NCBI GenBank assembly: GCA_018302225.1
Contig: JAGVZY010000007.1
Span: 13,700-77,699 of the forward strand
Source: Candidatus Woesearchaeota archaeon
GTDB lineage: Archaea; Nanobdellota; Nanobdellia; SCGC-AAA011-G17; JAGVZY01
DNA: 64,000 nt
Direction of reading: 5' to 3'
The notes under the pieces are model-generated. The model was not told where the DNA came from. It saw nothing but the letters and a program-made list of their open reading frames with translations, and did no database searches. Positions 5,879 through 43,623 of this stretch are shown in pieces. The first letter of the stretch is position 1. Every line of letters starts with the position of its first letter. Position numbers and translations under genes: made by a program.

Positions 5879-5913
5879 AAAATTAAGAACATTTAAGGAA
5901 TATATAAACTTTT

Positions 5914-6222
5914 TTAATCAATTAATTCAATTTCAATATTAACTTCTTCAGGAATAGGAACCCTCATTACTAATCTTAATGCTCTTTCATCAGCAGCTAA
6001 ATCGATTAATCTTTTATGAATTCTCATTTCAAAATTATCCCAAGAAGCAGTTCCCTTACCACAAGGAGACTTTCTAGTTGTTAATTTAAGCTTTTTAGTT
6101 GGTAATGTAATTGGTCCAGAAATATCTACTCCAGTCTTACTGGCTACATCCTTTATTGATTCACAGATTTGATTTAGCTTATCAATATCTGCACTTGCTA
6201 AGTTAATTCGTGCTTTTGGCAT
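5914..6222 (-). CDS. rps10: 30S ribosomal protein uS10
   Basis: Strong match to the archaeal S10 consensus (SGPITLPTKKLKLTTRKSP.G.G...WDNFEMRIHKRLIDL). Confidence 0.9.
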   Translation of the reverse strand: MPKARINLASADIDKLNQICESIKDVASKTGVDISGPITLPTKKLKLTTRKSPCGKGTASWDNFEMRIHKRLIDLAADERALRLVMRVPIPEEVNIEIELID

Positions 6223-6247
6223 AGTCTCTTTGATTAAACACTTATAT

Positions 6248-6673
6248 TTAAATTTTATCTTCAGAAGGGTTTTTAAATGTTTCTAAATGTTCAAATAGAC
6301 TTTCTAAAGAATTTCCTAAATTTCGATTACCTCCATAAATAGACTTTATAGTCTTTATGGGGTCTAAATTCTCTCCTGAATTATCAACTTTTTCAAGCTT
6401 TAAATTATAAAAAAAGCCAAAAACTCCATCTCTTAAACTTCTCTGATTAAACATAGCACTAATACTTTTTGGAAACCTTAAAACTAATCTAGTTAATCCC
6501 TCATCTTTTAGTTCAAAACCATCCATTACATAAATATTGCCTCCAGCAAAATTTCCACCAAAAATCTTTAAAGAATAAATTGAACCTTTTTTTAAAGAAT
6601 ACATTTTCTTAATAGATTTTTTAAATTTATAATCATTAGGTTCATACTCCAGAATTAAAATATAATTAATCAT
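6248..6673 (-). CDS. hypothetical protein inserted between tuf and rps10
   Basis: 141-aa ORF with normal codon usage, tightly packed between conserved neighbours; no motif recognised. Confidence 0.35.
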   Translation of the reverse strand: MINYILILEYEPNDYKFKKSIKKMYSLKKGSIYSLKIFGGNFAGGNIYVMDGFELKDEGLTRLVLRFPKSISAMFNQRSLRDGVFGFFYNLKLEKVDNSGENLDPIKTIKSIYGGNRNLGNSLESLFEHLETFKNPSEDKI

Positions 6674-6696
6674 AAAAAAGAAAAATTGAGAAGGTT

Positions 6697-7980
6697 TTAA
6701 GCCTTCTTTACATAATCAATACACATACCAGCCGCTACTGTTGAACCAGCATCTCTAATAGCAAATGAACTCATATGAGGTATATCTGATTTCTTTTCAA
6801 TTACTATTGGCCTTGTTGGAACAATTCTTACAATTGCGGCATCTCCATTTTTAAGCATGTCTGGACTTTTCTGTAAAACTTGTCCTGTTGCAGGATCTAA
6901 TTTACTTACTAATTCCTCAAATCTACACGCTACTTGTGCTGTATGTATATGGAATACAGGTGTATAACCTACAGTCAACACAGTTGGGTGATTCAATACT
7001 ATTATCTGTGCAGTGAATTCTTGAACAACAGTTGGAGGTGAATCTACTCTACCTAATACATCTCCTCTTGCAATATCTTTCTTTGCAATACCTCTGACAT
7101 TAAATCCAATATTGTCACCCGGTTCTGCAACTTGAATTTGCTCGTGATGCATTTCAATAGTTTTAACTTCTCCAGTTACACCCTTACCATCTTTTCCAGG
7201 TAAAATTATAACTTTGTCTCCAAGTTTTAATTGTCCAGTTTCAACTCTACCAACAGGAACAACACCAATACCAGTAATGTTATAAACATCTTGTATTGGA
7301 AGTCTTAATGGTAAGTTTGTTAATTTTTCTGGTTCTTTGAATGTATCTAATTGTTCAAAGATTGTTGGACCAGTATACCAAGACATATTAGTTGATTTCT
7401 TGAAAACATTATCTCCAAGCTGTGCACTTGTTGGAATAAAATTAACATTTGCTGGATTGTAACCAACAGTTTTCAATAATTTTGTTACTTCTTCTTTAAC
7501 AGCATTAAACTTTGCTTGATCGTACTTTACAGTATCCATCTTATTAACAGCAATAGCTAATTGTTTTACACCTAAAGTTTTACACAAGAATAAGTGTTCT
7601 TTAGTTTGAGCCATAATACCTTCACTTGCAGCCACAACTAAAACTGCAGCATCAGCTTGTGAAGCACCAGTAATCATATTTTTTATGAAATCTTTATGCC
7701 CTGGAGCATCTATGATACTTAACTCATATTTAGGAGTCATAAGTTTTTTATAAGAAAGATCTATTGTAACTCCTCTTGCTCTTTCTTCTTTAAGATTATC
7801 CATAACAAATGCAAACTCAAACCCTGCTTTACCTACTTCTTGAGCTTTTTCTTTTAATTTTCTCATTGTTTGCTCATCAATTATACCTGAATCGTAGAAC
7901 AATCTACCTACAGTTGTACTTTTACCGTGGTCTACATGACCTACAAATACTACATTTAAATGTGGTTTTTCTTTTGCCAT
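6697..7980 (-). CDS. tuf: translation elongation factor aEF-1 alpha
   Basis: [10 protein letters not shown]-loop, NKMD, SA motifs and full-length EF-1A/Tu architecture. Confidence 0.95.
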
Positions 7981-8040
7981 ATTAAAATATCCTCCTATTT
8001 AAGTATGAACAGATATTGGAATAAAAGCGCCTTTTATAAA

Positions 8041-8174
8041 GGTTTCGTTAACCCAAAGGTTAACAACCATAACCTACAAGGTTATGTTTCGTTGACTCAA
8101 GTCTACGAACTCAAACCAAAGGTTTGATTTTCGTTAACCAAATGTTAACAACCATAAAAAGATTATGTTTCATT
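8041..8174. promoter_or_regulatory. two tandem copies of a ~53-bp motif (8041-8093 and 8121-8174), each with a GTTAACC-N4-GGTTAAC palindrome, in the divergent tuf / ORF8271 promoter region
   Basis: Direct comparison: ggtttcgttaacccaaaggttaacaaccataacc...ggttatgtttcgtt versus ggtttgattttcgttaaccaaatgttaacaaccataaaaagattatgtttcatt. Confidence 0.5.
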
Positions 8175-8270
8175 AAATCAAGCCTTAAAATCTTCCCCAA
8201 AAAAAGGCTTCAAATAAGTCAAAATCTTAATAAGAAAACCTTTAAAGACTTAAAGCTTTTTAAGTAAAAT

Positions 8271-8855
8271 ATGCAAAATACAGAAGAAATCTTTGAAACA
8301 GTAATGCACTGGGGAAATGAAGCTAAATATAATCATTCAAACTTTCCAGATATAATAACAAATAAAGACAAAATTAGAGGTTTCTTTATAGGAACAAGTT
8401 ATAAAAAAGAAGAAAATAGAAATAATCTTGATTTAATTTCTTTTCTTAAACCTATTACAATATATTCAGACCTTTTTATACAAAATGAAGTATTTGATAA
8501 AGCTAAAGATATAACAGAACTTTTCAAAGATTATTCTCCAAAAAGCCAAGTTAAAATAGAGATGGAATCTTTTTTTATAAATGTTGTAAAAATGGGAATA
8601 TATATTACAGGCTGTTTAACTGAAATCCCTGAATCTATTGTTTTAAAAAGTGAAAACAACTCAAATAAACAAAAAATAGAAGAATTATTCAACATTTTTA
8701 ATTATTTTTCTTCATTAACTTACCTTAACTATAAGATGAAAAATTCAAAAACCCCCGTAATTGCTTTATTAAATCATGAAAATGTGAAAAAACCTTATGT
8801 TTATGAAAATCTTTTTGATAAAGATAATTTAGTTCTAAGACTTTGGAGAGAATAA
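8271..8855 (+). CDS. hypothetical protein, antisense insertion between fusA and tuf
   Basis: 194-aa ORF, no motif recognised. Confidence 0.4.
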   Translation: MQNTEEIFETVMHWGNEAKYNHSNFPDIITNKDKIRGFFIGTSYKKEENRNNLDLISFLKPITIYSDLFIQNEVFDKAKDITELFKDYSPKSQVKIEMESFFINVVKMGIYITGCLTEIPESIVLKSENNSNKQKIEELFNIFNYFSSLTYLNYKMKNSKTPVIALLNHENVKKPYVYENLFDKDNLVLRLWRE

Positions 8856-8908
8856 AAATCTTCAAATATTATTTCTAAAAAATATCAAAACAAAAAGAAA
8901 ACTAAGAC

Positions 8909-11110
8909 TTACTCTTGAGGTTGTAAATCTTCATCAACTTTAAGACCTTTTCTTTCTCTAACTTGTCTTACAACTTTATCTTGAAGATCAAATGGTAACT
9001 TCTCAAATACTTGATCAACAACAAAGTAGTTTCCACGACCACCAGTTGCGCTTCTTAAATCATTACTTAATCCAAACATATTTGCAACAGGCATTTTTGC
9101 TTTAACAGTTATGTGCTCTCCTTCTTGATGCATATCTAATAATTGTCCTCTTTTGTTTGAAACTAATTTTGAAATTTCACCCATAAAACTTGCAGGTGCT
9201 TCAATTTGTAAAACTTGTAAAGGTTCGTAAATTACTGCACCACCAGCTAACATAGCTTGTTTTACTGCAGACCTTACAGCAGGTAATACTTGTGCAGGTC
9301 CTCTGTGAATAGCATCCTCATGAAGTTTAGTATCTAAAAGTCTAATTAACATTTTGTTACCTGGTTCTCTTGCTAAAGGACCATTAACAATTACTTGTTC
9401 TATACCTTCTATAACTAATTCTATAACTTCTCCAATGTGTACAACACCTCTTGTATTTTCTACAAATACACATCCATTAATTATGTCTTTAATTTTTCTT
9501 GCTTCTTTTGCGTCCCAACCAAATTCCATAAATTTCTGTGCAATTTCTAATTCATTTTTCTTAGTTACTTTTCCAGATGGGATTTCTCCAGCTTTTATAG
9601 ATTCGTAAATCTCTTCAGGTAAAGGTTCTACTGTGAAATAAAATTTGTTATGTTTATTTGGAGATTTTCCTTCAACTTCAGGTGATGTTTTTGTAACTGA
9701 TTCTCTATAAACAACTATAGGTGGACTTGTTACAATTTCCAAACCTTTTTCACTTTTAATTCTATTTTCAATAACATCTAAATGAAGTTCACCCATACCA
9801 TGCATTAAGTGTTCTCCAGTTTCTTCATTAATTTCAATTGTAATGCTTGGATCTTCTTTGTTAACCTGTCTTAAAACTTCAACTAATTTTGGTAAGTCAC
9901 TTGGTTTTTTAGCTTCAATAGCTTTTGTAACTACAGGTTCAAAAATATGTTTAAGAGCTTCGAAGGGTTCTATTGGATCTGAACTAATTGTTTCTCCAGC
10001 AAATACATCTTTTAATCCCATCAAACCAATTATATTTCCAGCAACTGCTTCTTCAACCATTTCTCTCATTGGTCCTTTGTAAACAACAACTTGCTGAATT
10101 CTTACTCTTCTCTTAGCTTGATTCATATAAAGTTCCATTCCCTGTCTTACTCTTCCAGAGAATAATCTTCCTGCTGCAATTTCTCCAGCATTTCTATCAA
10201 TAGTAATTTTTGTACAAGTAAAAGCAACTGGACCTTCAGAATCACAAGTCATTAATGCCTTTCCTTCAACACTTTCTTTATCACCATGCCAAATTTGTGG
10301 AATTCTATATATTTGAGCAAATTTTGGATTTGGATGATGTATAACAACCATGTCTAAAACAACAGCATGTAATGGTGCCCAGTCTGCTAATTCCTTATAT
10401 TTTTCCATATTAGTTTCATCAGAATAATGTTCAATTACAGTTTTAAAAGAAAGATTATGTTCTTTCATGTATGGAAAACTTAATGCCCATTTATGAACAG
10501 CAGAACCAAATGCAACTCCACCTTTCTGAACATCTACATTCCAAGTATCTTTAAATTCTTTAGGTGTAATAGAAGAAATGAATTTATTAACATCAGTTAT
10601 AATCTTTAAAAATCTTTTTTGCATATCTTCAGGAGTTAATTTAACTTCTCTAATTAACCTATCAACTTTATTTATAAATAGAACAGGTTTTACTCTTTCT
10701 CTAAGTGCTTGTCTTAAAACAGTTTCAGTCTGAGGCATCATACCTTCAACAGCATCTACTAATACAATAGCACCGTCTACAGCCCTCATAGCTCTTGTTA
10801 CATCTCCACCAAAATCAACATGACCAGGAGTATCAATTAAATTAATTAAATATTCATCATTTTTATATTGATGAACCATATTTACATTAGCAGCATCAAT
10901 TGTAATTCCTCTTGCAATTTCATCTTCTCTAAAATCTAAGAAACATTGCTGTCCTGCTAATTGTTTTGAAATCATACCAGCACCAGCCAATAAATTATCT
11001 GAGAATGTAGTTTTACCATGATCAATATGAGCACAAATAGCAATATTTCTAATCTTCTCAGGAGTATTCATAATCCTCTTGATTTTATCAATCATTTTTT
11101 CGTCTGCCAT
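8909..11110 (-). CDS. fusA: translation elongation factor aEF-2
   Basis: AHIDHGKTT G-domain; full EF-2/EF-G domain series, 733 aa. Confidence 0.95.
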   Translation of the reverse strand: MADEKMIDKIKRIMNTPEKIRNIAICAHIDHGKTTFSDNLLAGAGMISKQLAGQQCFLDFREDEIARGITIDAANVNMVHQYKNDEYLINLIDTPGHVDFGGDVTRAMRAVDGAIVLVDAVEGMMPQTETVLRQALRERVKPVLFINKVDRLIREVKLTPEDMQKRFLKIITDVNKFISSITPKEFKDTWNVDVQKGGVAFGSAVHKWALSFPYMKEHNLSFKTVIEHYSDETNMEKYKELADWAPLHAVVLDMVVIHHPNPKFAQIYRIPQIWHGDKESVEGKALMTCDSEGPVAFTCTKITIDRNAGEIAAGRLFSGRVRQGMELYMNQAKRRVRIQQVVVYKGPMREMVEEAVAGNIIGLMGLKDVFAGETISSDPIEPFEALKHIFEPVVTKAIEAKKPSDLPKLVEVLRQVNKEDPSITIEINEETGEHLMHGMGELHLDVIENRIKSEKGLEIVTSPPIVVYRESVTKTSPEVEGKSPNKHNKFYFTVEPLPEEIYESIKAGEIPSGKVTKKNELEIAQKFMEFGWDAKEARKIKDIINGCVFVENTRGVVHIGEVIELVIEGIEQVIVNGPLAREPGNKMLIRLLDTKLHEDAIHRGPAQVLPAVRSAVKQAMLAGGAVIYEPLQVLQIEAPASFMGEISKLVSNKRGQLLDMHQEGEHITVKAKMPVANMFGLSNDLRSATGGRGNYFVVDQVFEKLPFDLQDKVVRQVRERKGLKVDEDLQPQE

Positions 11111-12835: not shown

Positions 12836-13057
12836 CATTTTTATTCCACTTTTTTTAACTTTTTTTTATTAAATTTGATAATTAAAATTTTAGTTTAATA
12901 ATATTATTATAAATTCATTATAATTCCCCTCGCAGAATTATTAATGAAACCTGGCTTGTAAAATTTTTGATAGTTTATTTTAAACTGTTAAGAAAAACAA
13001 GCCAATCTTTTTGAAATTAACTTTTTAATATATATAAGGATAAGGGGCACATTTATA

Positions 13058-13139
13058 GGCTGCATCCTAAAGAAAGCTTATAGAAATCCTAGGAATAGCA
13101 CCTCCAAAAGATTTTCAATCCAATTGTTGCCATGCAGCC
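13058..13139. other. second hairpin-like element: GGCTGCAT-N66-ATGCAGCC, shares the 12-mer AATC[CT]TAGGAAT with the 12784 element
   Basis: Perfect 8-bp inverted repeat; the shared internal 12-mer is at 13084-13095 versus 12816-12827. Confidence 0.45.
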
Positions 13140-21182: not shown

Positions 21183-21371
21183 ACCTGTATAACCTAAAGA
21201 ATCTTTATTATTGAAAAATGTCGGTTTTTTTAATTTAAAATTATCTTATCCAATTAAATTAGGTTTATTTATCATACCTCATTTTTATTCTTTAAACTTA
21301 TATTAAATTTACTTCAAAAATATTGCTAAAAATAAGAATATTTATATATTTATTCTTACTTTTGTTAAATT

Positions 21372-27710: not shown

Positions 27711-27842
27711 CCCATCCTAGCTCAATGGTAGAGCACTCGGCTGTAGCTTTAGAGCGCAGGCAAAGTTAATGTCCAAAAGACTAACAATGAAGACCTGACA
27801 GCCGATACCGAGTGGTTCCTGGTTCGAGTCCGGGGGATGGGA
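27711..27842 (+). tRNA. tRNA-Tyr (anticodon GTA) with 60-nt intron (27747-27806) at the canonical 37/38 position; C1:G72 base pair
   Basis: Manual fold: acceptor CCCATCC/GGATGGG, D arm GCTC-AATGGTA-GAGC, anticodon stem CTCGG/CCGAG interrupted by 60 nt after CTGTAG, T arm CCTGG-TTCGAGT-CCGGG, discriminator A. Confidence 0.75.
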
Positions 27843-28830: not shown

Positions 28831-29190
28831 ATGGAATGCACACTTTATAAAACAATGAATTTCATTGCCAAACGTTGGAATTTGCTAATAATTCTTGAGC
28901 TTTATAAGGGTGATAAAGAATGGAAAAGATATTCAGAAATTAAAAGACAATTAAACAATATCACTCCAAAAATTCTGTCACTACGTCTTAAAGAACTTCA
29001 AATTGAAGGTTTAATACAAAGAAGAGAAGATACCACACATCATCCCATAAAATCAGAATACAAACTGACTTCTTCTGGAAACAATTTTATTCAAGTAATT
29101 CAGCAGATAAAAGAATGGACATTAAAAAATAAATTATCAAATCAAACATGCAAAGAAACAGATTGTAAATACTGCACAATATCAAAATAA
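28831..29190 (+). CDS. HxlR-family winged-helix transcription regulator
   Basis: CTLYKTMNFIAKRWNLLIILELYKGDKEWKRYSEIKRQL...LRLKELQIEGLIQRRE matches the HxlR core. Confidence 0.7.
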   Translation: MECTLYKTMNFIAKRWNLLIILELYKGDKEWKRYSEIKRQLNNITPKILSLRLKELQIEGLIQRREDTTHHPIKSEYKLTSSGNNFIQVIQQIKEWTLKNKLSNQTCKETDCKYCTISK

Positions 29191-29232
29191 ATCATTAAAT
29201 TAATATTACAAATAATACCTTAAAAACAAACC

Positions 29233-29282
29233 TTACCTCAAATTTTAACACTTCCAAACCTGTTTTAACTCGGTTTTGACAA
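29233..29282. repeat. 50-bp direct repeat, copy 1 (island left boundary); contains tandem GTTTT[AG]AC half-sites
   Basis: ttacctcaaattttaacacttcCaaacctgttttaacTcggttttgacaa is 48/50 identical to 34021-34070. Confidence 0.8.
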
Positions 29283-29327
29283 AAACTTAGCCTACCGACG
29301 GTGGCTAGTGTTGATAAGGGTTCGCAT

Positions 29328-29464
29328 ATTTACGAAGCATTGCGTCAAACCTTAAACCCTATAAACGCTGAATTCTAATTTTTGTCTATCAAGCCTAACG
29401 CAATCCACAGTTTTACGAAAGCATTGCGCCAGTTTATTTATATATAAATTAACTGATATTTAAG
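29328..29464. repeat. 137-bp conserved module repeat, copy 1; weaker similarity continues to about 29521
   Basis: Gap-free alignment with 30710-30846 at roughly 93% identity. Contains two TTACGAA(A)GCATTGCG boxes and a TTTATATATAAA TATA-like box. Confidence 0.8.
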
Positions 29465-29545
29465 CTCTTCCCTACTAAAGCGAAAGTGATGCGCTTTCAA
29501 TTTTAGAAAAGTTTATATATTTGAAGTTATATCTGTTGATATAAC

Positions 29546-29833
29546 ATGACAGAATTATTATTAAATCAAGAAAATGTATTAAGATACCCAAGATTAGACA
29601 CTTTGCTCAATGTAGAAGAATTCATAAGAGTGCATGATGGAGAATTTAAAAAAAGAAAATTATGGGAATCTTTGCCAAAAAAGATGATGTATCAAACATT
29701 TTGTGTAATAATTAACTACCTTCTTTACTCAAGAAAAATTTCAATAGACACAGAAGGAAAAATTGGATGGATATACTATCCTGAAGTTGCAAGAGAATAT
29801 TATTCAAAAACACGTTTAGGTAGAAAGAAATGA
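29546..29833 (+). CDS. hypothetical protein, candidate antitoxin partner
   Basis: 95-aa ORF overlapping the next ORF by 4 nt (ATGA). Confidence 0.25.
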   Translation: MTELLLNQENVLRYPRLDTLLNVEEFIRVHDGEFKKRKLWESLPKKMMYQTFCVIINYLLYSRKISIDTEGKIGWIYYPEVAREYYSKTRLGRKK

Positions 29834-30162
29834 AATTACCTTCAGAAATAAGATTTGTAGATGATAATCTAAAAGAAGCATTTTATAGGTTAGAAAAAGG
29901 AGATGAACAAGAAAAAGAATTATTTAAATTGTTAAATCAAGCTATGGACAATATAGAAGAAAGTGCATTTTGTGGAATTCAAATTCCAAAAAGATTAATT
30001 CCTCAAGAATACTCTAAAAAGGAAATTAAAAATCTGTGGAAATATGATTTGCCTAGAGGCTGGAGATTGGTTTATTCTATTGTAAATGAGGAATTAGTGG
30101 TTGTAAGTATAGTCCTTGAATGGTTTGATCATAAAGATTATGAAAGAAGATTTAAGTATTAA
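29830..30162 (+). CDS. candidate RelE/ParE-superfamily-like toxin
   Basis: C-terminal LPRGWRLVYSIVNEELVVVSIVLEWFDHKDYERRF resembles the RelE/YoeB-type toxin C-terminus; small size and translational coupling. Confidence 0.3.
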   Translation: MKLPSEIRFVDDNLKEAFYRLEKGDEQEKELFKLLNQAMDNIEESAFCGIQIPKRLIPQEYSKKEIKNLWKYDLPRGWRLVYSIVNEELVVVSIVLEWFDHKDYERRFKY

Positions 30163-30216
30163 AAAATATATTCTAAAAAACCGATATATATATACATCTT
30201 TAGTTTATTTAATCCG

Positions 30217-30576
30217 ATGTCAATATTTAAAAAAAGTCCTGAGCAAATTCGCAAACAGGTATTAGAACTTGAGAATCAAGCCACTAAGAGTTTTAATGCA
30301 GAGTTTAACGCTTTGAAACAAGAGTCTATAGATTTTGCAAATGTTATGGAGAGTTACGCTATGTTTAAGAGTATATGGATGGAATTTAACATACACCCAA
30401 ATGAAGATAAGTTTAATCTTGCTATGATTCATTTCGAAAGTTTAAAAAAAGACTTTGAAAAGATTAAAACAAAACGACATAATATAGAACAATTATTTGA
30501 CTGGCTTAAAGCTCAACTAAACTCCCAAGAATTATTGATTATGAAGATTAAAGCTGCGAGTATGACTATTAAATAA
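30217..30576 (+). CDS. hypothetical helical protein
   Basis: 119-aa ORF. Confidence 0.3.
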   Translation: MSIFKKSPEQIRKQVLELENQATKSFNAEFNALKQESIDFANVMESYAMFKSIWMEFNIHPNEDKFNLAMIHFESLKKDFEKIKTKRHNIEQLFDWLKAQLNSQELLIMKIKAASMTIK

Positions 30577-30635
30577 GTAAAAGTATAAAAAATTATTTGT
30601 AAACCCCTTTAATAAACAAAATTGTCAATTTTAAA

Positions 30636-30676
30636 CCTCAAAACAGGTTTTGATACGGTTTTGACAAGAATTCAGC
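30636..30676. repeat. degenerate internal copy of the 50-bp boundary repeat (deletion variant)
   Basis: cctcaaaacaggttttgatacggttttgacaagaattcagc versus 34024-34076 cctcaaa...cctgttttaacccggttttgacaagaattcaac. Confidence 0.6.
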
Positions 30677-30709
30677 TATTTTCGACGCCGCACTTTCACT
30701 TTGCCTGCT

Positions 30710-30846
30710 ATTTACGAAGCATTGCATTAAACCTTAAACCCTATAAACGCTGAATTCTAATTTTTATCTATCAAGCCCGACGCAATTCACTTTTTTACGA
30801 AAGCATTGCGCCAGTTTATTTATATATAAATCAACTGATATTTAAG
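30710..30846. repeat. 137-bp conserved module repeat, copy 2; weaker similarity to about 30909
   Basis: See copy 1. Confidence 0.8.
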
Positions 30847-31162
30847 TTCTTCCCCCTTTTATGAAACTAGTGCGCTCGGGGGTTTATAAAAGATAGAAAG
30901 ATTTATATAGTAGTTATGACTACATAATTGTAGTAGGATTGATATTATGGTTTATTTTATAGAAATACAACCAACAGAACATTATATTGAAGAACATGAA
31001 CAGGCTGTTCCATGGGATAAAGTTATTGAAATAATTTTTAGAACAAAAAAATCCAAAAAAGAAAGGAAATAAATTCGAAATTGAGAAGGATGGATATTAT
31101 ATCCTTTTTGAAATAAAAAATAGTATTTTGTATGTAATAAATGCTAAAAAAGGTGATTAAAA

Positions 31163-31531
31163 ATGAAACAACAAAAATTTGAGAAATTTTTGGGTAATCC
31201 AAAATCTAAAAGATCTTTGACATGCCCAAATTGTAGCTCAGAACTAAAAAAAGTGGAAGTTAAAGTACAAGGTGCTAAAAACAAAGCTATTAGTTATCAA
31301 TGTCCTGATTGTGATTACTTTGAGTTTGAACCAATATCTTCTGAAAAAGTTATACAAGAATTAAAAGACACCCCCTTAAAAATCAAACAGAAAATAATAA
31401 AATTATCTCAAGATAGATTAGGGATGTATATTAATCGAGATGTTGCTCGAAGCTTAAATCTTAAAGGCGGAGAAGAAGTATATATCTCTGTACCCGATAA
31501 AAAACATTTGGTTGTTAATCTAGCCGATTAA
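31163..31531 (+). CDS. Zn-ribbon (CPNC...CPDC) plus AbrB/MazE-like swapped-hairpin C-terminal domain protein, putative regulator
   Basis: Four Cys in a CxxC-N19-CxxC arrangement; C-terminus LGMYINRDVARSLNLKGGEEVYISV resembles SpoVT/AbrB-type domains. Confidence 0.3.
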   Translation: MKQQKFEKFLGNPKSKRSLTCPNCSSELKKVEVKVQGAKNKAISYQCPDCDYFEFEPISSEKVIQELKDTPLKIKQKIIKLSQDRLGMYINRDVARSLNLKGGEEVYISVPDKKHLVVNLAD

Positions 31532-31779
31532 TAAACTTAAGGCATAAAACCTATAAAAATTACATTAGTTTTTTAAACATTCTAAGGTTTTTAAGCTTAA
31601 AATTAAATATTATGTATCTAAAGACTTGGTCTAACCAAAAACCCTAAAAGGAGGTTATTCCCTAGCTTTTTGTTTTTTGTTAGTTTTTACTTTATTGATT
31701 TTGGATTAATTTTACTGATTCTTTGAAATATCCTTGGAGAAGCTTGGATGATTTAATATTTTAAAAAAGAGGTGCTATC

Positions 31780-32502
31780 ATGAAAAGATTATTTTTTGTT
31801 TTGATTTTGGGGGCATTAATTTTAGTAACAGGTTGTACGGAAAAAAATCCGATTTCATCTACACCCGCAGTAAATACACAACCCCTATTGCCTTATGAAG
31901 AAGGCTCTGACACGTGGATAATTCATATTTATAAGTATCAAATGGGCTTTAAAATGGTGGCCGGCTATACTTTTACTTCGCCCCTTACACAAGTTGATAT
32001 GGGCGAAAAGATTTATATCAGCCAGCCCTATTTTGAAGCTTCTGAAACAGTCTCTGTAAAAGTTACATTGACTAACTGTATGAACATTTCTAACACGGGA
32101 ATAATCTCACTTATCGTTGGAGGGTGTAACGAAGAAGTTCCTTTCATTCTCAGACCTATTTCTTATGAAAATGAATTCTCTTTTGAATTACCTGCAGATA
32201 AAATTGGGATAGGAAAACACTCCTTCAGTTTTTCAATTTTAGAAAATCCTAACTGGCAAGCAGATGCTTTCACTGGAAGAGTAAGCATAGGAAAAAAATA
32301 TTCTATTACTGATGGAAGTGTCATCTCGTTTCAAGAAAAAAAACTAACAATAAAAGAAATTTTAGAAACTGGGGAGATTATCATTTCTTATCTAAATGAA
32401 GAAAAGGTTATTAATAAAGACTCAATCAAAGCAGTAAAAGATTTGATAATAAAAGTAGGGGCAGATTCTACCCTTGTAGTTTGGGAAAGTATTCTTCCCT
32501 AA
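31780..32502 (+). CDS. predicted secreted lipoprotein (lipobox LVTG|C)
   Basis: Signal peptide MKRLFFVLILGALILVTGC with a bacterial-type lipobox; GC-richer than the flanks. Confidence 0.5.
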   Translation: MKRLFFVLILGALILVTGCTEKNPISSTPAVNTQPLLPYEEGSDTWIIHIYKYQMGFKMVAGYTFTSPLTQVDMGEKIYISQPYFEASETVSVKVTLTNCMNISNTGIISLIVGGCNEEVPFILRPISYENEFSFELPADKIGIGKHSFSFSILENPNWQADAFTGRVSIGKKYSITDGSVISFQEKKLTIKEILETGEIIISYLNEEKVINKDSIKAVKDLIIKVGADSTLVVWESILP

Positions 32503-32553
32503 TCCATGGCAATGAGAATTTTAATCGAAAAGAGTTATTTATTCAAAATCAAA

Positions 32554-32598
32554 CTGCCTTGTATAAGTTAAATTATGCAAGGCAGTTTTTTCTTTTTT
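32554..32598 (+). terminator. hairpin CTGCCTTG-N16-CAAGGCAG followed by T-rich run
   Basis: Read directly; downstream of the lipoprotein gene. Confidence 0.5.
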
Positions 32599-32625
32599 CA
32601 AATCAACTAAATCCAAAGGAGGATT
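32588..32625 (+). promoter_or_regulatory. duplicated leader with GGAGG Shine-Dalgarno (copy 1), identical to 33392-33429
   Basis: ttttcttttttcaaatcaactaaatccaaaggaggatt is shared by the two loci, each 6-8 nt upstream of an ATG. Confidence 0.6.
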
Positions 32626-32631
32626 TATTTT

Positions 32632-33348
32632 ATGAAAAAGATACTTTTTGTTTTATCAATTTTTGTTTTACTCTTTGCGGTTCAGAACGCAGAAGCAGAA
32701 AATCTCCTTCAAAAGATAACAGAAAAGATGATGAATCTCTATTCTGCAGAAACAGACGTTTACATTAAAAATCGCTTAATCGAAGAGGTTTGTAGCATTC
32801 AACAAAAAGAAATAGATTGGGAGTTATTCAATAAAGCTGCTGAATTCTTTACTGATTATAAGTCTGCCTATCCGTTTGGTACAATTCCTATACATACCTG
32901 GGAAATATGCAGATTTATGAATAAAAGTGAACAATTAGCACTTATTGCTAATTTTGAGTCATTTGTTCTCTTTCGTATAAACGCGGCCTTACCTAAAGAG
33001 GTTTTATTCAGAGAAGAAAATAGATTAGATACTTCTCCCCTCTTTATTGACATATTTATTGATACATTATATGAATTTGATATTGTATTAATCAATAATA
33101 TTTCTTTATCTGATAGCTGGATTGAATGGACCGATGATAGTAGCACGGAAATTATCAACAGAGACGATTTGCGAGAAGTCGCAAACGTAGCGAGTAATAA
33201 ACTAATTGCTTATGAGCCTAAGTATTCCGATTGGATTCTTCGAGATAAAGAAAATTTTCCTCGAGGGATTAGATGGCCTATGGAAAAAGAAAACTTACCT
33301 TATTTCTTCAGACAATATGAACGCATAAAGCAGTATGCAGGGAAATAA
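32632..33348 (+). CDS. secreted protein (cleavable signal peptide), unknown function
   Basis: MKKILFVLSIFVLLFAVQNAEA signal; 238 aa. Confidence 0.45.
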   Translation: MKKILFVLSIFVLLFAVQNAEAENLLQKITEKMMNLYSAETDVYIKNRLIEEVCSIQQKEIDWELFNKAAEFFTDYKSAYPFGTIPIHTWEICRFMNKSEQLALIANFESFVLFRINAALPKEVLFREENRLDTSPLFIDIFIDTLYEFDIVLINNISLSDSWIEWTDDSSTEIINRDDLREVANVASNKLIAYEPKYSDWILRDKENFPRGIRWPMEKENLPYFFRQYERIKQYAGK

Positions 33349-33391
33349 ATATTTTAAGGTCGACTCTTTTCTTAATTGATTAAAGCTGACT

Positions 33392-33429
33392 TTTTCTTTT
33401 TTCAAATCAACTAAATCCAAAGGAGGATT
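33392..33429 (+). promoter_or_regulatory. duplicated leader with GGAGG Shine-Dalgarno (copy 2)
   Basis: See 32588-32625. Confidence 0.6.
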
Positions 33430-33433
33430 ATTT

Positions 33434-33874
33434 ATGTTAGAAAGAGGAAGTTTGCTTTTAGGTCTTTCTTTGTGGGCAGTCGAGCTGATAAAAGCCAATA
33501 AAACAGCTAGCCTTCTGGATTTTATTGAGAACTCAAGGGAAACACCAATTATTTCTCCTGAAGATCTCGGTGAAATCTATATTACTTTAGCCCAGCAGGG
33601 GAGAATGGAAGAAATAGAATTTCTTCACACAAAAACCCCTTATAAGCTTTTTGGAACCCACCCCGGGATTGTTGAGCGAGTCTTAATCATCCTTACTGAA
33701 AAGCTGGATTTAAAAAAGCCGTTCTTGGAAGCGTTTAGGGACAGGCTTAATATTTCTAATAATATCAGTAAAGAAATCTGGCAGATTCTTGAGATTATAA
33801 TCCTCGCAAAAAACGGGAATTATAAGGTGGTTAGAAAGAAACTTCTACCTTTACAAGTACGGGACAAAATCTGA
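33434..33874 (+). CDS. hypothetical protein with hydrophobic N-terminus
   Basis: 146-aa ORF, GC-richer. Confidence 0.35.
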   Translation: MLERGSLLLGLSLWAVELIKANKTASLLDFIENSRETPIISPEDLGEIYITLAQQGRMEEIEFLHTKTPYKLFGTHPGIVERVLIILTEKLDLKKPFLEAFRDRLNISNNISKEIWQILEIIILAKNGNYKVVRKKLLPLQVRDKI

Positions 33875-33886
33875 AAAAACTAATTG

Positions 33887-33916
33887 AAGGCCAATTAATT
33901 TTGGCCTTTCTTTTTG
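33887..33916 (+). terminator. hairpin AAGGCCAA-ttaatt-TTGGCCTT followed by T-rich run; near-identical in style to the 14033 terminator
   Basis: Read directly. Confidence 0.5.
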
Positions 33917-34020
33917 TATCTAATGTTAACAATAGTTAATATATTAACCTGATTGTATAAAAAATAAAATAAAGAAACGCATCAGTTTCGTTTTATCTTT
34001 CAACCAAAGATTAATAAGGA

Positions 34021-34070
34021 TTACCTCAAATTTTAACACTTCTAAACCTGTTTTAACCCGGTTTTGACAA
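34021..34070. repeat. 50-bp direct repeat, copy 3 (island right boundary), about 110 bp upstream of L7Ae
   Basis: See 29233-29282. Confidence 0.8.
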
Positions 34071-34179
34071 GAATTCAACAAAAATTTATGTACTACTTTC
34101 ATTTTACAGTCTTATATGGAAAAGTATTTAAACATACCACTTATTTTCTTTTCAAAACCAATGAAACGAGGTAAATAAA

Positions 34180-40461: not shown

Positions 40462-41584
40462 AATGGTAAACAAAATATTAACTGGTGCAGAAACCAGTGC
40501 AGAAGCAATGCGTCAAATAGCCCCAGATGTAGTTTCAGCCTATCCTATCACTCCTCAAACCCATATAATTGAAAAATTCTCAGAATTTATTGCAGATGGT
40601 TTAATAGACACAGAATTGATTAGAGTAGAATCAGAACATAGTGCCCTAAGTGCTTGTGTTGGTGCTTCAGCAACAGGTGCAAGAACAATGACTGCAAGCT
40701 CATCAGCAGGCTTAGCCTTAATGTTTGAAATATTAGGAGTTACCTCGGGATTAAGACTTCCAGTAATTATGAACATTACAAATAGAGCATTATCTTCACC
40801 AATAAATATTCATTGTGATCATTCAGATTCTATGAATTGCAGAGATTCTGGTTGGATTCAAATATATTCTGAAAACTGTCAAGAAGTTTATGATTTCAAT
40901 TTAATAGCAGTAAAACTTGCAGAGTCGATAAATCTTCCAGTAATGATCATGCAAGATGGTTTTATTGTTTCTCATGGTGTGGAAAATTTATGCATTCTAG
41001 AAGACAAAAAAGCAAAATTATTTATAGGAAATTATAAACCAAAGTTTTCTTTACTTGAATTTAAAAAACCGAAAACCTTTGGTGCCTTACAACTAACAGA
41101 CTATAATTTTGAAACAAAAATTCAAATTTCGCAAGCAATGGAAAAAGCAAAACAAAAATATTTAGAAATTTCAAAAGCATATTCAAAAATCTCAGGAAGA
41201 AATTATAATTTCTTTGAATATTATGGAAATAAAAATACAAAAGATGTAATTGTGGCTTTATCTTCAACAGCAGGAACAATAAAAAGTATGATTGATGAAG
41301 GTTTAAATCTTGCCCTATTAAAAATTAACTTATTTAGACCATTCCCCCATGAAGAAATAAAAAATATTCTAAAAGATAAAAAAAGAATTATAATCTTAGA
41401 TCGTTCAGAAAGCTATGGTTCTTATCCACCCCTATATTCAGAAATCAAATCTGCACTTTATGATCTAAAAGAAAAACCTGAATTAATAAGTCATGTATTT
41501 GGAATTGGTGGAAGAGAAATTTACAAACAAGATATAAAAAATATTTTAAATAATTCAAAAAAATATATAGGTGTAAGAGAATGA
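40454..41584 (+). CDS. porA: POR alpha subunit
   Basis: Full-length match to POR alpha pattern; overlapping starts/stops with neighbours. Confidence 0.85.
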   Translation: MNKMVNKILTGAETSAEAMRQIAPDVVSAYPITPQTHIIEKFSEFIADGLIDTELIRVESEHSALSACVGASATGARTMTASSSAGLALMFEILGVTSGLRLPVIMNITNRALSSPINIHCDHSDSMNCRDSGWIQIYSENCQEVYDFNLIAVKLAESINLPVMIMQDGFIVSHGVENLCILEDKKAKLFIGNYKPKFSLLEFKKPKTFGALQLTDYNFETKIQISQAMEKAKQKYLEISKAYSKISGRNYNFFEYYGNKNTKDVIVALSSTAGTIKSMIDEGLNLALLKINLFRPFPHEEIKNILKDKKRIIILDRSESYGSYPPLYSEIKSALYDLKEKPELISHVFGIGGREIYKQDIKNILNNSKKYIGVRE

Positions 41585-43623
41585 AAGATTTAACAATAAA
41601 AGAACTGGCTCAAAAGGATACTCAGTTTATATCAGGGCATAGAGCTTGTGCGGGGTGTGCATTCCCAATTATCGTGAAAACTATTCTCGCATCAACAGAT
41701 AAAAAAGTAGTTGTCTGTGCTGCAACAGGTTGTTTAGAAGTTGTCTCAACAATTTACCCTTATTCTTCATGGAAAGTTCCATTTATTCACAGTGCATTTG
41801 AAAATGCAGGTGCAACAATTTCAGGTGTAGAAACTGCATTTAAAGCATTAAAGAAAAAGGATCCAAAATTAAAAAAAGAAGACGTTAAATTCATTGCCTT
41901 TGCTGGAGACGGTGGATCTTACGACATTGGACTTCAGTCTTTATCAGGAACATTAGAACGTGGGCATGATATAGTATTTGTAGTTTATGACAATGAAGCT
42001 TATATGAATTGTCTAAGCTTAGATAGCCTAATTATGACTAAAGAAGGGTTAAAAAAAGTAATGGATGTTAAAGTTGGAGAATTGATCTATGCTTTTGATG
42101 AAAATGCTCATAAACTGATTACTAAAAAATGTATAGGTAAATTTAATAATGGTATTAAAAAAGTGTATGAACTTAACACATTTCATCATTCAATAAAAAC
42201 AACAGATAATCACCCTTTTCTAATATTAAAACGAAATGGGCGAGGTAAAAAAGCTCAATTTATTTGGAAGAAATTAAAAGATTTAAAAGTAGGCAATGAA
42301 ATTATAACTTTAAAGAAAATAAATAATGAAAAAAGTTTCAGTTTTGATAAAATAAAAATATCTAAAAAAGGAGATTACAAAGTAAATAAAATAAATGAGA
42401 TAAATTTACCAAAAATAAGTTCTACAAATTTAATGGAATTTTTAGGATTATATATGGGCGATGGATGGATAAGAGAATCTAAGGCAGAAGTAGGTTTTGC
42501 ACTACCCCGCAATAAAAAAGGGCGCGAGAGGTTAATAACTCTCTATAAAAAAATATTTAATATATCGCTTAAACCAAAAGATAAAAACTATGTTTATATT
42601 TATTCTTTAAATTTAGTAAGATTTATAGAATCTTTAAAATTTAATAAAGGTGCAAAAAATAAAATAGTGCCTGCTTGGATATTCACTCTGCCACTTAAAG
42701 AAAAAGAAGCTTTTATACAAGGATTAATGCTTTCAGATGGATATCAAATAAAAAATAGTAAAAGATATATATCTGCGAGCATCGATCTTTTAAAAACCTT
42801 AAGATTACTTCTGCAAACCTGCAATTATAGAGTAGGAAAAATACATTTACAAAAAAAATTAAAAGGAACGCATGTAGTTTATAGAAAATTGTTAAAAGAT
42901 TCTACTTATGGTTATATCTGTTTTAGTAAAAAAAAGAGGTTATTAATTGATAAATATATCTCTCAAACAAAACAAAAAGACTTTTTTGCAGGAAATAAAA
43001 ATTTTGGAACTGAAAAAATAATTTCTATTAAATTTATAAAAGAAGAATCAACAATTGATTTAAGTGTTGAAGGAGCACATAATTTTATAGCCGACGGAAT
43101 TGTAGTCCACAATACAGGGGTTCAAGGATCAAGTTCAACTCCTTTCGGTGCTACAACTACAACAACACCAGATGGAAAAATTCATCATGGTAAAGAACAA
43201 ATCAAAAAGAATTTAATGGAAATTGTAATCGCACATAAAATACCTTATGCTGCACAAGCAAGTGTCTTTGATTTGGAAGATCTTTCAAGAAAAGCAAAAA
43301 AAGCATTTGAAACAAAAGGCCCTAGTTTCTTAAATGTTTTATCACCCTGTAATTTAGGTTGGAAACATCCACCAAACATAACAATTACAATTGCAAAACT
43401 AGCAACAGAAACAAATTTCTGGCCATTATATGAATATGAAAATGGAAATTATATCTTAAATTATAAACCACAAATTCAAAAGAGTGTAAATTCTTATTTA
43501 AGACTTCAAGGTAGATTTAAGCACCTTTTTAAACCAGAAAATAACTTACTTCTTGAAAAACTGCAAAAATCAACTGATGAACAGTGGGAAAAACTGTTAA
43601 AAGTCTCTAAAAACCTTAAATAA
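41581..43623 (+). CDS. porB: POR beta subunit (TPP-binding) interrupted by a 368-aa intein
   Basis: CAGCAFP cluster-ligand motif, GDG-x25-N TPP motif; exteins sum to about 312 aa, typical PorB size. Confidence 0.85.
   Translation: MKDLTIKELAQKDTQFISGHRACAGCAFPIIVKTILASTDKKVVVCAATGCLEVVSTIYPYSSWKVPFIHSAFENAGATISGVETAFKALKKKDPKLKKEDVKFIAFAGDGGSYDIGLQSLSGTLERGHDIVFVVYDNEAYMNCLSLDSLIMTKEGLKKVMDVKVGELIYAFDENAHKLITKKCIGKFNNGIKKVYELNTFHHSIKTTDNHPFLILKRNGRGKKAQFIWKKLKDLKVGNEIITLKKINNEKSFSFDKIKISKKGDYKVNKINEINLPKISSTNLMEFLGLYMGDGWIRESKAEVGFALPRNKKGRERLITLYKKIFNISLKPKDKNYVYIYSLNLVRFIESLKFNKGAKNKIVPAWIFTLPLKEKEAFIQGLMLSDGYQIKNSKRYISASIDLLKTLRLLLQTCNYRVGKIHLQKKLKGTHVVYRKLLKDSTYGYICFSKKKRLLIDKYISQTKQKDFFAGNKNFGTEKIISIKFIKEESTIDLSVEGAHNFIADGIVVHNTGVQGSSSTPFGATTTTTPDGKIHHGKEQIKKNLMEIVIAHKIPYAAQASVFDLEDLSRKAKKAFETKGPSFLNVLSPCNLGWKHPPNITITIAKLATETNFWPLYEYENGNYILNYKPQIQKSVNSYLRLQGRFKHLFKPENNLLLEKLQKSTDEQWEKLLKVSKNLK
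42010..43113 (+). mobile_element. intein with LAGLIDADG homing endonuclease, inserted right after the conserved Asn of the PorB TPP motif (...YDNEAYMN|C...VVHN|TG...)
   Basis: N-terminal Cys, C-terminal His-Asn followed by Thr. Two LAGLIDADG motifs: LGLYMGDGWI and IQGLMLSDGYQI. Confidence 0.8.

Follow-up and report, generated by a model that had tools for sequence, protein, structure and literature searches.

How does a 4.8-kb islet of accessory genes come to adjoin the upstream side of a ribosomal-protein operon in an uncultivated groundwater Woesearchaeote, and was it delivered by a mobile element? In the window analysed here, a 64-kb (64,000-nt) stretch of that genome, three copies of one local DNA element split the islet into left and right segments. 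These hold two toxin-antitoxin modules (TA1 and TA2), ORF119, ORF240, ORF238 and ORF146, three orphan secreted-protein genes among them. As discussed below, this is most likely a genomic islet of an ordinary kind; a new mobile-element family is not demonstrated. We give a probability of roughly 40% to its being what remains of small integrase-less insertions, now fixed and decaying, and we describe it as lineage-specific and accessory with like reserve. The features are as follows (+, forward strand; positions are those of the window):

29213-29326, no strand: U1, left boundary copy of element U, core R1 at 29233-29285; its flanks hardly resemble the other copies
29327-29472, no strand: 146-nt element, copy A; box 1 at 29330-29344, box 2 at 29413-29428, near-palindromic TATA-like sequence at 29430-29455; no ORF
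29473-29503, +: weakly conserved extension of copy A; small hairpin (AAAGCG...CGCTTT), then a T-run
29504-29545, +: TA1 promoter/operator; TATA at 29509-29524, palindrome GTTATATC-N4-GATATAAC at 29526-29545, abutting the ATG
29546-29833, +: TA1 antitoxin candidate, 95 aa; 4-nt overlap with the toxin gene, with which it is paired in all homologous loci
29830-30162, +: putative TA1 toxin, RelE/ParE/YoeB-like, 110 aa
30217-30576, +: ORF119; 3' end lost in a population deletion variant
30598-30708, no strand: U2, middle copy, core R2 at 30618-30670
30709-30854, no strand: 146-nt element, copy B
30947-31160, +: putative TA2 toxin pseudogene; a 41-aa ORF resumes in another frame after an A-rich run at about 31050-31070
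31163-31531, +: TA2 antitoxin candidate, 122 aa; N-terminal CxxC...CxxC zinc ribbon, C-terminal MazE/AbrB-like segment
31532-31779, no strand: AT-rich spacer; contig ends or starts from several independent assemblies fall within 31560-31661
31780-32502, +: ORF240, lipobox lipoprotein (LVTGC), ORFan
32568-32654, +: duplicated leader/ribosome-binding-site segment (D3), second copy at 33372-33458; 76% identical overall, 39-nt core nearly identical
32632-33348, +: ORF238, signal-peptide-like N-terminus, ORFan
33434-33874, +: ORF146; a terminator-like hairpin with a GC stem comes next, at 33886-33909
34001-34108, no strand: U3, right copy, core R3 at 34021-34073
34109-34179, +: L7Ae promoter and 5' leader; native sequence, outside the islet

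The initial annotation placed a 50-nt direct repeat, 48/50 identical, at both islet ends, and this is correct. Taken as R1 and R3, the two copies match at 50 of 53 positions, and the 27-nt right half of the repeat occurs twice in the window (and not once in 100 shuffles). Identity is 94% inside the repeat and about 33%, the chance level, in the 20 nt on each side, a sharpness that is expected after Campbell-type insertion and so supports an insertion reading. The variant copy noticed near 30636 is also present, as the degenerate R2 (66% identical ungapped, 80-84% over 45-49 nt with one gap). All copies share one orientation, and the 50-bp repeat forms the centre of a longer unit of about 115 nt, element U, present at full length as the middle copy and as the right copy. 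Read from the sequence, R contains three phased boxes, ATTTTAAC, GTTTTAAC and GTTTTGAC, at offsets 10, 30 and 41.

These boxes bear on one possible route of entry, that of the IMEX elements, which lack an integrase and enter the chromosome dimer-resolution site (dif) in tandem via the host XerA recombinase. XerA is widespread in archaea (PMC2958812), and the islet is likewise integrase-less, tandem and bounded by direct repeats, but a recombinase core built of inverted repeats could not be discerned in U: for 11-bp inverted arms with a 4-10-nt spacer the best match was 7-8 of 11, equalled by 170-294 of 300 shuffles. The U boxes are direct, not inverted, and cumulative GC skew gives no sign of a replication terminus here, making this route very improbable.

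A second repeat, always lying about 45 nt inside a U copy, is 93% identical without gaps (29327-29472 versus 30709-30854). Previously put at about 137 bp, it measures 146 nt; the identity, the lack of gaps and the weak similarity continuing for some 50 nt further all stand. The boxes described in it are present (TTACGAAGCATTGCG at 29330 and 30712, TTACGAAAGCATTGCG at 29413 and 30795), forming in each copy a direct pair 15 and 16 nt long and 83 nt apart, and the TATA-like sequence is part of a 26-nt near-palindrome around TTTATATATAAA. Contigs L008 and L010 begin at copy B, an assembly break at the repeat. Such conservation would stem from RNA function rather than recombination if the 146-nt elements were small non-coding RNA genes, or cis-acting leaders or attenuators, transcribed from the palindromic TATA-like box. 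Indeed, the 93% identity lies in non-coding DNA beside diverged flanks, a hairpin and T-run follow the palindrome by about 30 nt in both copies (with stem sequences that differ between them), and ATTGCG and CGCAAT segments may pair in alternative ways. That said, the element had no Rfam match even at E <= 10, folding against shuffled sequence was marginal for copy A (z = -1.97) and showed no gain for copy B (z = -0.52), and no structured RNA was detected in the islet. One difference between the copies also disrupts the best stem, uncompensated, as read from the sequence, and covariation is not assessable with two copies only. An RNA role is accordingly rated improbable.

Of the cargo, the intact TA1 module is demonstrably portable, judging from sequence comparisons. 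The whole unit, with its own promoter/operator, recurs in four other gene contexts on DPANN contigs, and the promoter/operator is 80-90% conserved upstream of TA1 homologues at unrelated loci (L052, L074, L075 and L076). Neither U nor the 146-nt element accompanies TA1 at these homologous DPANN loci. A close parallel to the islet is L052, whose TA1-like unit is 82% nucleotide-identical to ours (29504-30167) and forms a 799-bp insert between two copies of a tRNA-Pro 3' end; a further toxin-type gene, Fic, occupies the next slot, between the next two tRNA-Pro-derived att copies. Both loci thus carry the same TA family between direct repeats of a local site and have no integrase. They differ in that the L052 repeats derive from the tRNA 3' end (exact over 25 nt and, in degenerate form, reaching about 75 nt), show no similarity to U and are not accompanied by a 146-nt element.

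The toxin of TA1 has 1,421 homologues, mostly in DPANN, at 70-86% identity, several of them named RelE/ParE or Txe/YoeB at source. Its proposed RelE-like nature is plausible but weak, since it scores under the curated cut-offs for the ParE, YoeB and RelE models while the homologue names agree. Compared with type II modules of the RelE/ParE superfamily, TA1 is unlike in these sub-threshold toxin scores and in an antitoxin that belongs to no described family; it is alike in its small overlapping genes with the antitoxin first, its palindromic operator overlapping the promoter, and its scatter across genomes. The TA2 toxin, which matched no family, is probably a frameshifted pseudogene. Its partner was described as a Zn-ribbon plus AbrB-like regulator, again plausible but weak (Zn_ribbon_8, E = 3.5e-4; MazE_antitoxin, E = 0.03), and the TA1 and TA2 antitoxins are unrelated. 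The two ORFans, ORF240 and ORF238, are the largest islet genes. ORF146 was considered as the counterpart of a 146-aa ORF upstream of L7Ae in L077 and rejected, there being no homology. The TA modules and ORFans support the accessory nature that had been claimed for the cargo.

Cargo of this kind invites comparison with the cassette arrays and CALINs (attC clusters without an integrase) of archaeal MAGs, which are enriched in TA genes, signal-peptide proteins and ORFans (PMC9668308). In the islet, too, all ORFs are co-oriented and repeated sequences separate the gene groups, so that U or other intergenic sequences might serve as attC sites. However, a search of both strands found no R'' (RYYYAAC) and R' (GTTRRRY) pair 50-150 nt apart, U has no hairpin or conserved structure, there is no IntI, and the modules consist of several genes with their own promoters. 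An integron-like origin is, on this showing, hardly credible.

The islet had also been described as GC-richer than its surroundings, which holds only for 31780-33900, where GC reaches 33.4%, the top of the window range. The window averages 29.0% (SD across 2-kb windows 1.8), the islet as a whole 30.7% and its left module 28.5%, and the adjoining L7Ae side is already at 31-32%. In tetranucleotide distance the islet does not stand out (z = -1.6 to +1.4). Composition is thus essentially native on the left half and only mildly GC-high on the right. Nor do bacterial-style GGAGG leaders mark the islet as foreign: such motifs occur on 19 of 71 window genes, including L7Ae, thermosome and hemerythrin.

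The islet is fixed in the population. Among the fetched contigs (about 19 assemblies), the junction search returned 18 attL-type and 19 attR-type junctions and no empty site or circle. Variation exists within it: a 772-bp internal deletion joins 30362 to 31135 in L044 and L062, and in L043 the centre of 146-nt copy A has been converted to copy B sequence. The lack of an integrase, as first reported, stands, and the window ORFs tested, like the islet itself, encode neither an integrase nor a transposase. The initial annotation had counted a missing empty site or missing compositional deviation against insertion, and this is largely what was found: no empty site among the fetched contigs and no clear deviation.

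The right boundary lies where it had been placed, the end of R3 being 110 nt from the L7Ae ATG (34180), and the leader at 34125-34178 is identical at 54/54 nt to that of the nearest relative found, L046, though the coding sequences are only about 79% identical. L046 carries a U-like element upstream of L7Ae. U2 is a full-length homologue of it (71% identical, gap-free over 117 nt; by BLAST, 74.5% over 106 nt), and U3, 64% identical, is collinear with it in an alignment that continues through the L7Ae gene. This element would suit a native element and an att site alike. In the more distant L047, a related tandem GTTTTGAC motif lies upstream of L7Ae, a hint of a native regulatory role for U.

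The explanation that we prefer, on the estimate given at the outset, is that integrase-less cassettes entered U one after another by Campbell-type insertion and have since become fixed and are decaying. Small circular DNAs without a recombinase gene would have inserted serially by single crossover at U, an AT-rich target just upstream of the L7Ae-S28e-L24e-ndk promoter, every insertion regenerating one copy of the shared sequence. An older event may have produced the diverged full-length pair U2/U3 around copy B, TA2 and the ORFans; a younger one would account for the sharply bounded 53-nt pair R1/R3 (or R1 plus the middle site) and would have brought copy A along with TA1 and ORF119. The 146-nt element could be a conserved element-side arm, whose direct boxes and AT-rich palindrome would be bound by a recombinase or an accessory factor provided in trans, and the TA modules, with promoters of their own, may stabilise the insert. 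The TA2 frameshift and the circulating deletion variant would be signs of decay after fixation.

Insertion is supported by the R1/R3 match with its chance-level flanks and the common orientation of the copies, by the full-length homology of both U2 and U3 to the L046 element, by the TA1 unit lying between tRNA-Pro copies in L052 and in four gene contexts, and by the accessory and ORFan cargo with its decay and deletion variants. It is weakened by the lack of an integrase or transposase and of empty-site or circle junctions, by the near-native composition, by the failure to find U and the 146-nt element elsewhere, by TA1 moving without them, by the L047 motif, by the lack of an inverted-repeat core in U, and by U2, which looks like an intact site on both flanks, unlike a hybrid att site. 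The earlier tandem-insertion reading, then, is partly borne out by the sharp bounds, accessory cargo and portable TA; the lack of an integrase in the window tells against it, and its empty site, distinct composition and new family find no support. As to a new family, R/U and the 146-nt repeat were absent from the other genome, metagenome, viral, plasmid and phage sequences searched, although the genome and metagenome collections contain next to nothing from this organism (L028 alone was recovered). The portable TA1 unit excludes the repeats, and the largest genes are ORFans.

The main rival is endogenous and, in our estimate, rather unlikely. U and the 146-nt element would together be a native cis-regulatory module, its phased boxes binding a protein ahead of a promoter. 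Illegitimate or unequal recombination would have copied the module locally, with gene conversion keeping the copies alike; TA modules and ORFans would have arrived or arisen downstream later, and no discrete mobile element would ever have existed. It gains from the same register in both modules (start-to-start spacings of 1385 nt for U and 1382 nt for the 146-nt element), the L043 conversion, the local D3 duplication inside the same islet, the native composition, the U-like element upstream of L7Ae in L046 and the related motif there in L047, the box spacings of 20 and 11 nt in U, which seem to suit a DNA-binding protein, and the failure to find an empty site or integrase. Against it, identity is strongly mosaic (U1/U2 64%, 146-nt element 93%, extension about 55-60%, cargo unrelated), conversion would find no homology beside the 53-nt R1/R3 block from which to start, neither U or R nor the 146-nt repeat has additional copies within the 64 kb, and the TA antitoxins are unrelated, so that the shared boxes cannot be their operators.

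Serial insertion has archaeal precedents in AT-rich intergenic att sites, integrase gene loss after integration, and tandem accretion at one att site, as in the integrated plasmids of Methanococcales and the tandem elements of Thaumarchaeota and halophiles (PMC8371274). Compared with integrase-less archaeal integrated elements, the islet segments are tiny, at 1.4 and 3.4 kb, and lack genes for replication or structural proteins. Their candidate att site is no tRNA, neither polymorphism nor a second instance is seen, and there is the conserved 146-nt arm with its direct boxes. The likeness lies in direct site repeats that bound several co-oriented accessory segments in tandem, with no integrase gene, and in a site that is AT-rich and intergenic, as for psiM100.

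The islet of about 4.8 kb (29233-34073) lies in DNA that is archaeal, with an archaeal RNase P RNA, an intron-containing tRNA and a mean GC content of 29%, and the L7Ae protein encoded next to it is 100% identical to an NCBI protein assigned to a Candidatus Woesearchaeota archaeon. Three copies (R1 to R3) of a boundary repeat of 50-53 nt, the core of a larger element termed U, and two copies (A and B) of a second, non-coding repeat are distributed along it, as follows.

28831-29190, HxlR-family regulator gene, left flank
29233-29285, R1
29327-29472, second repeat, copy A, left module
29504-30167, portable toxin-antitoxin unit TA1
30598-30708, U2, with R2, a degenerate copy of the boundary repeat, at 30618-30670
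30709-30854, second repeat, copy B, right module
34001-34108, U3, with R3 at 34021-34073
34180 onward, L7Ae-S28e-L24e-ndk-thermosome cluster, right flank

The direct repeat at the boundaries, reported in the initial annotation, is real. R1 and R3 agree at 50 of 53 positions, and the right half of R has no other match in the window and does not occur in 100 shuffles. Only the 53-nt core is common to the two copies; their flanks are about 33% identical, the level expected by chance. A shared core with unrelated inner flanks is the direct-repeat hallmark of an att-bounded element, and identity of R1 and R3 without flanking homology is what a single-crossover insertion leaves.

The extent of U emerges from comparison with the nearest relative found, a 990-bp contig from Hainich groundwater (L046) whose L7Ae is 80% identical in protein and about 79% in nucleotide sequence. 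Within the 391 nt of upstream sequence in that contig there is one U-like copy, directly upstream of the L7Ae promoter. R2, together with about 30 nt to its left and about 38 nt to its right, aligns with it gap-free at 71% over 117 nt, and the R3 region aligns at 64%, the alignment continuing collinearly into L7Ae. By this homology, U is an element of about 115 nt, with U2 and U3 as its full-length paralogues. Three phased boxes recur in U (ATTTTAAC, GTTTTAAC and GTTTTGAC, at spacings of 20 and 11 nt), and in a relative at 70% identity (L047) a looser tandem-box version precedes L7Ae by about 165 nt. No conserved RNA structure was detected in U on either strand, and neither U nor the second repeat has an Rfam covariance-model match, even at E <= 10.

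We favor, at a probability of roughly 40%, a reading in which cassettes without an integrase would have been inserted serially at U by Campbell-type (single-crossover) events. The diverged full-length U2/U3 pair would be the trace of an older event of the same kind as that marked by R1/R3, and the islet would now be fixed and decaying. This preference stems from the sharp bounds of R1/R3, the divergence of U2 from U3, a parallel case at a tRNA gene described below, and archaeal precedent, which includes AT-rich intergenic att sites, tandem integration and loss of the integrase (PMC8371274). That relatives have a U-like element speaks for the main rival, somewhat unlikely in our judgment, that U and the second repeat constitute a native regulatory module that was duplicated in situ and homogenized by conversion; so does the collinear register that U and the second repeat keep. 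Against such an origin, gene conversion would hardly produce the sharp bounds of R1 and R3 in the absence of flanking homology.

The second repeat is likewise real, measuring 146 nt without gaps at 93% identity. It carries two boxes of the type TTACGAA(A)GCATTGCG, namely TTACGAAGCATTGCG and, 83 nt further on, TTACGAAAGCATTGCG, as well as a 26-nt near-palindrome centered on TTTATATATAAA. The ten differences between copies A and B (G>A, C>T, G>A, T>C, A>G, C>T, A>T, G>T, T>C and C>T) fall in sequence that is non-coding in both. A diversity-generating retroelement (DGR) was rejected, there being no reverse transcriptase and the mismatches not being confined to adenines of one copy. The element has no homology to the L7Ae promoter or leader, and it cannot be an operator shared by the two antitoxins of the islet, since these are unrelated. 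It lies outside the portable TA unit and is not a known RNA, and neither serial insertion nor in situ duplication accounts for its function.

The cargo of the islet includes two toxin-antitoxin modules. TA1 comprises a candidate antitoxin (ORF95) and a RelE/ParE-like toxin (ORF110) whose genes overlap by 4 nt, and this small two-gene operon, with a palindromic operator at its promoter, fits the type II layout. ORF110 scores just below the curated cut-offs of all three models concerned (ParE, 20.3 bits against 23; YoeB, 18.4 against 27; RelE_StbE, 20.0 against 27.9). It has 1,421 homologues, mostly DPANN archaeal proteins 70-86% identical to it, several of which carry a RelE/ParE or Txe/YoeB name at NCBI and JGI. 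TA2 consists of an apparently frameshifted small toxin-like ORF and a zinc-ribbon protein (ORF122) with a weak MazE/AbrB-like match. PDB sequence searches with the TA proteins gave no match, and PADLOC returned nothing meaningful. Among the remaining genes, ORF238 has no homologue beyond itself in 5.8 billion sequences and ORF240 none beyond itself in 1.8 billion. ORF146 was considered as a conserved neighbor of L7Ae and dismissed, the 146-aa ORF at that position in contig L077 not being homologous. ORF238 and ORF146 share a duplicated leader (32568-32654 and 33372-33458) with a nearly identical 39-nt core, TTTTTCTTTTTTCAAATCAACTAAATCCAAAGGAGGATT, and a hairpin with a 16-bp stem (32551-32588) stands just upstream of the first copy.

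TA1 travels as a unit made up of a TATA box, the palindromic operator and both genes. It is 82% identical to a segment of contig L052 and is also found in L057, L074 and L075/L076, between different housekeeping genes each time; four loci besides this one have retained the operator palindrome (29526-29545). The TA1 loci of all these contigs lack both U and the 146-nt element. Flanking direct repeats were seen only in L052, with nothing convincing in L074 and L075, and were dismissed as a feature of TA1 loci at large. L052 carries a tRNA-Pro gene and, in addition, four degenerate repeats of its 3' end together with the adjoining downstream sequence. These form an array (4841-11054) whose intervals hold, in order, a kinase/unknown pair, the TA1 homologue, a Fic gene and NIF3. 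Two of the repeats, sharing an exact 25-nt direct repeat, enclose the TA1 homologue as a 799-bp insert, and no integrase was found in the array. Such an array is a classical case of accretion in tandem at the att site of a tRNA gene, and it demonstrates that members of the TA1 family are carried on very small att-bounded segments that lack an integrase. Elsewhere in the same contig (14686-16254) a gene pair (255 + 83 aa) is perfectly duplicated in tandem (100% identity over at least 300 nt, with a period of 1269 nt), so recent segmental duplication does occur in these genomes.

If serial insertion is the correct reading, the islet would be a compact case of how tiny, integrase-poor DPANN genomes gain and keep accessory genes, small TA-stabilized cassettes accreting at a fixed intergenic site beside an essential operon while the same TA family does likewise at a tRNA gene of another lineage. 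Were the repeats instead a native module, U would be a conserved element that controls the archaeal L7Ae operon from upstream, copied before TA modules and of interest for the regulation of ribosomal-protein genes in DPANN archaea. Under either reading the finding is local, has no demonstrated family and opens no long-standing question.

Pfam searches revealed no integrase, recombinase or transposase domain in the islet, in the 10 kb on either side, or in any other ORF of the window that was tested. The best inverted repeat in U that could serve as a recombinase core, at 11 nt, is no better than those in shuffled sequence. Elements that exploit Xer (IMEX) use a dif-like site of two 11-bp inverted arms around a spacer of about 6 bp (PMC2958812), and they were rejected, as U holds no such inverted repeat above chance. 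Integron attC sites are imperfect palindromes of 55-141 nt, R''(RYYYAAC)...R'(GTTRRRY), and were searched for as motif pairs; neither strand has an R''/R' pair at a spacing of 50-150 nt, U shows no consensus structure and no IntI was found, so an integron or CALIN was likewise discarded. The islet repeats no part of the closest tRNA gene (27711-27842, intron-containing), which disposes of a tRNA-derived att site. It is very improbable, though conceivable, that an uncharacterized cassette-capture system of DPANN archaea is at work, one that would be functionally integron-like, with sites other than attC and a recombinase that the host provides or whose gene lies elsewhere. Such a system would stack promoter-bearing TA and secreted-protein cassettes at U upstream of the L7Ae operon, the 15/16-nt boxes acting as arm-type binding sites and the L052 array being a second manifestation.

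The proposal that the islet represents an undescribed mobile-element family gains no support beyond this single locus. Neither repeat was recovered from genome, metagenome, viral, plasmid or phage collections. Viral contigs gave nothing or chance matches of 18-26 nt. In genome and metagenome contigs, the right half of R returned chance matches and one contig of the same organism (L028), a weak negative given that these two collections hold almost none of this organism's DNA.

The islet had been described as a GC-richer island, which is true of 31780-33900 (33.4% GC) but not of the whole, at 30.7% against 29.0% (SD 1.8, 2-kb windows), nor of the left module, at 28.5%. The left 2.5 kb is native in composition (28.7% GC), tetranucleotide distances to the window mean are unremarkable (z = -1.6 to +1.4), and GGAGG-type leaders, described earlier as bacterial-style, are no foreign mark, being present on 19 of the 71 window genes, L7Ae included. 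The GC claim excepted, the original observation as a whole is sound. Native composition favors duplication in situ, and this rival gains further from the failure of any fetched contig to show an empty site. Junctions in these contigs comprise 18 of attL type and 19 of attR type, with no empty-site and no circle junction. The idea of tandem non-autonomous insertions is plausible but unproven, having direct repeats with unrelated flanks on its side and the missing integrase, empty sites and circle junctions against it. The locus is best regarded as a small intergenic islet that bears TA genes and lacks an integrase.

About 19 groundwater assemblies contain identical or near-identical contigs, and the arrangement is the same in every contig with an identical HxlR, toxin, ORF122 or L7Ae gene product. 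An assembly artefact was rejected because the same architecture recurs at 99.8-100% identity in these roughly 19 independent assemblies. Variants of the islet do exist in the population, and none has the repeats at its borders. In L044/L062, 30362 is followed immediately by 31135, a deletion of 772 bp (30363-31134) that takes away the 3' end of ORF119, U2, copy B of the 146-nt element and the toxin pseudogene of TA2. Its breakpoints do not coincide with repeats, and among the remaining contigs some stop at 30402 or begin at 30347. In a JGI contig (L043, 8177-8322), the center of copy A bears the variants of copy B and is 97% identical to it, a conversion patch that fits homogenization of a native module. 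The same contig follows the window up to 34123, where, right at the L7Ae TATA box, it gives way to 116 nt (12974-13089) matching nothing fetched; these anomalies reflect either gene conversion and rearrangement or assembly artefacts.

Contigs also break repeatedly in the AT-rich spacer (31560-31661) between the TA part and the ORFan part, ending at 31560, 31575 (twice) and 31613 and starting at 31570 and 31661 in at least five independent assemblies, which could reflect structural variation, a drop in coverage, or a repeat that has further copies beyond the window. A 1.4-kb contig of 1.4x coverage (L073) is 100% identical to 30941-31900, and its first 473 nt are unrelated, GC-richer DNA, with a minus-strand ORF lacking a Pfam match, joined to 30941. 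The junction falls 6 nt ahead of the start codon (ATG) of the toxin pseudogene, and the contig represents either an alternative context or a chimera. LCEI01000007.1 (GCA_000996265.1; L061/L072), binned as 'Parcubacteria group bacterium GW2011_GWA1_42_7', has bacterial FtsW/MurG genes joined to the archaeal region at about 26327 and ends at 31575. It appears chimeric, which accounts for the Parcubacteria name that the toxin bears in NCBI.

Several further features of the window were observed. The L7Ae promoter and 5' leader (34125-34178) are identical to L046 337-390 at 54 of 54 nt, the coding region at only about 79%. The leader contains CCAAUGAAACGAGG (34158-34171), overlapping the Shine-Dalgarno sequence, which from its sequence reads as a putative k-loop with a CC/GG C-stem, a 3-nt bulge and tandem G.A pairs. 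Translation of L7Ae is autoregulated through a k-turn in the 5'-UTR (PMC5539422, PMC6298567), a scheme that the predicted k-loop fits, and k-turn-like hairpins occupy the same leader position in L047 and L077. The tRNA at 27711-27842, 132 nt in total with its long intron, was found by Rfam and missed by ARAGORN. The TPP-binding subunit of pyruvate:ferredoxin oxidoreductase (41581-43623, 680 aa) carries an intein (Pfam Intein_splicing, precomputed annotation). Finally, L044 and L043 differ from the window by a 90-nt insertion/deletion polymorphism at 21247/21248, affecting an AsnC-type regulator that is called as one 319-aa protein or as two (139 + 165 aa).
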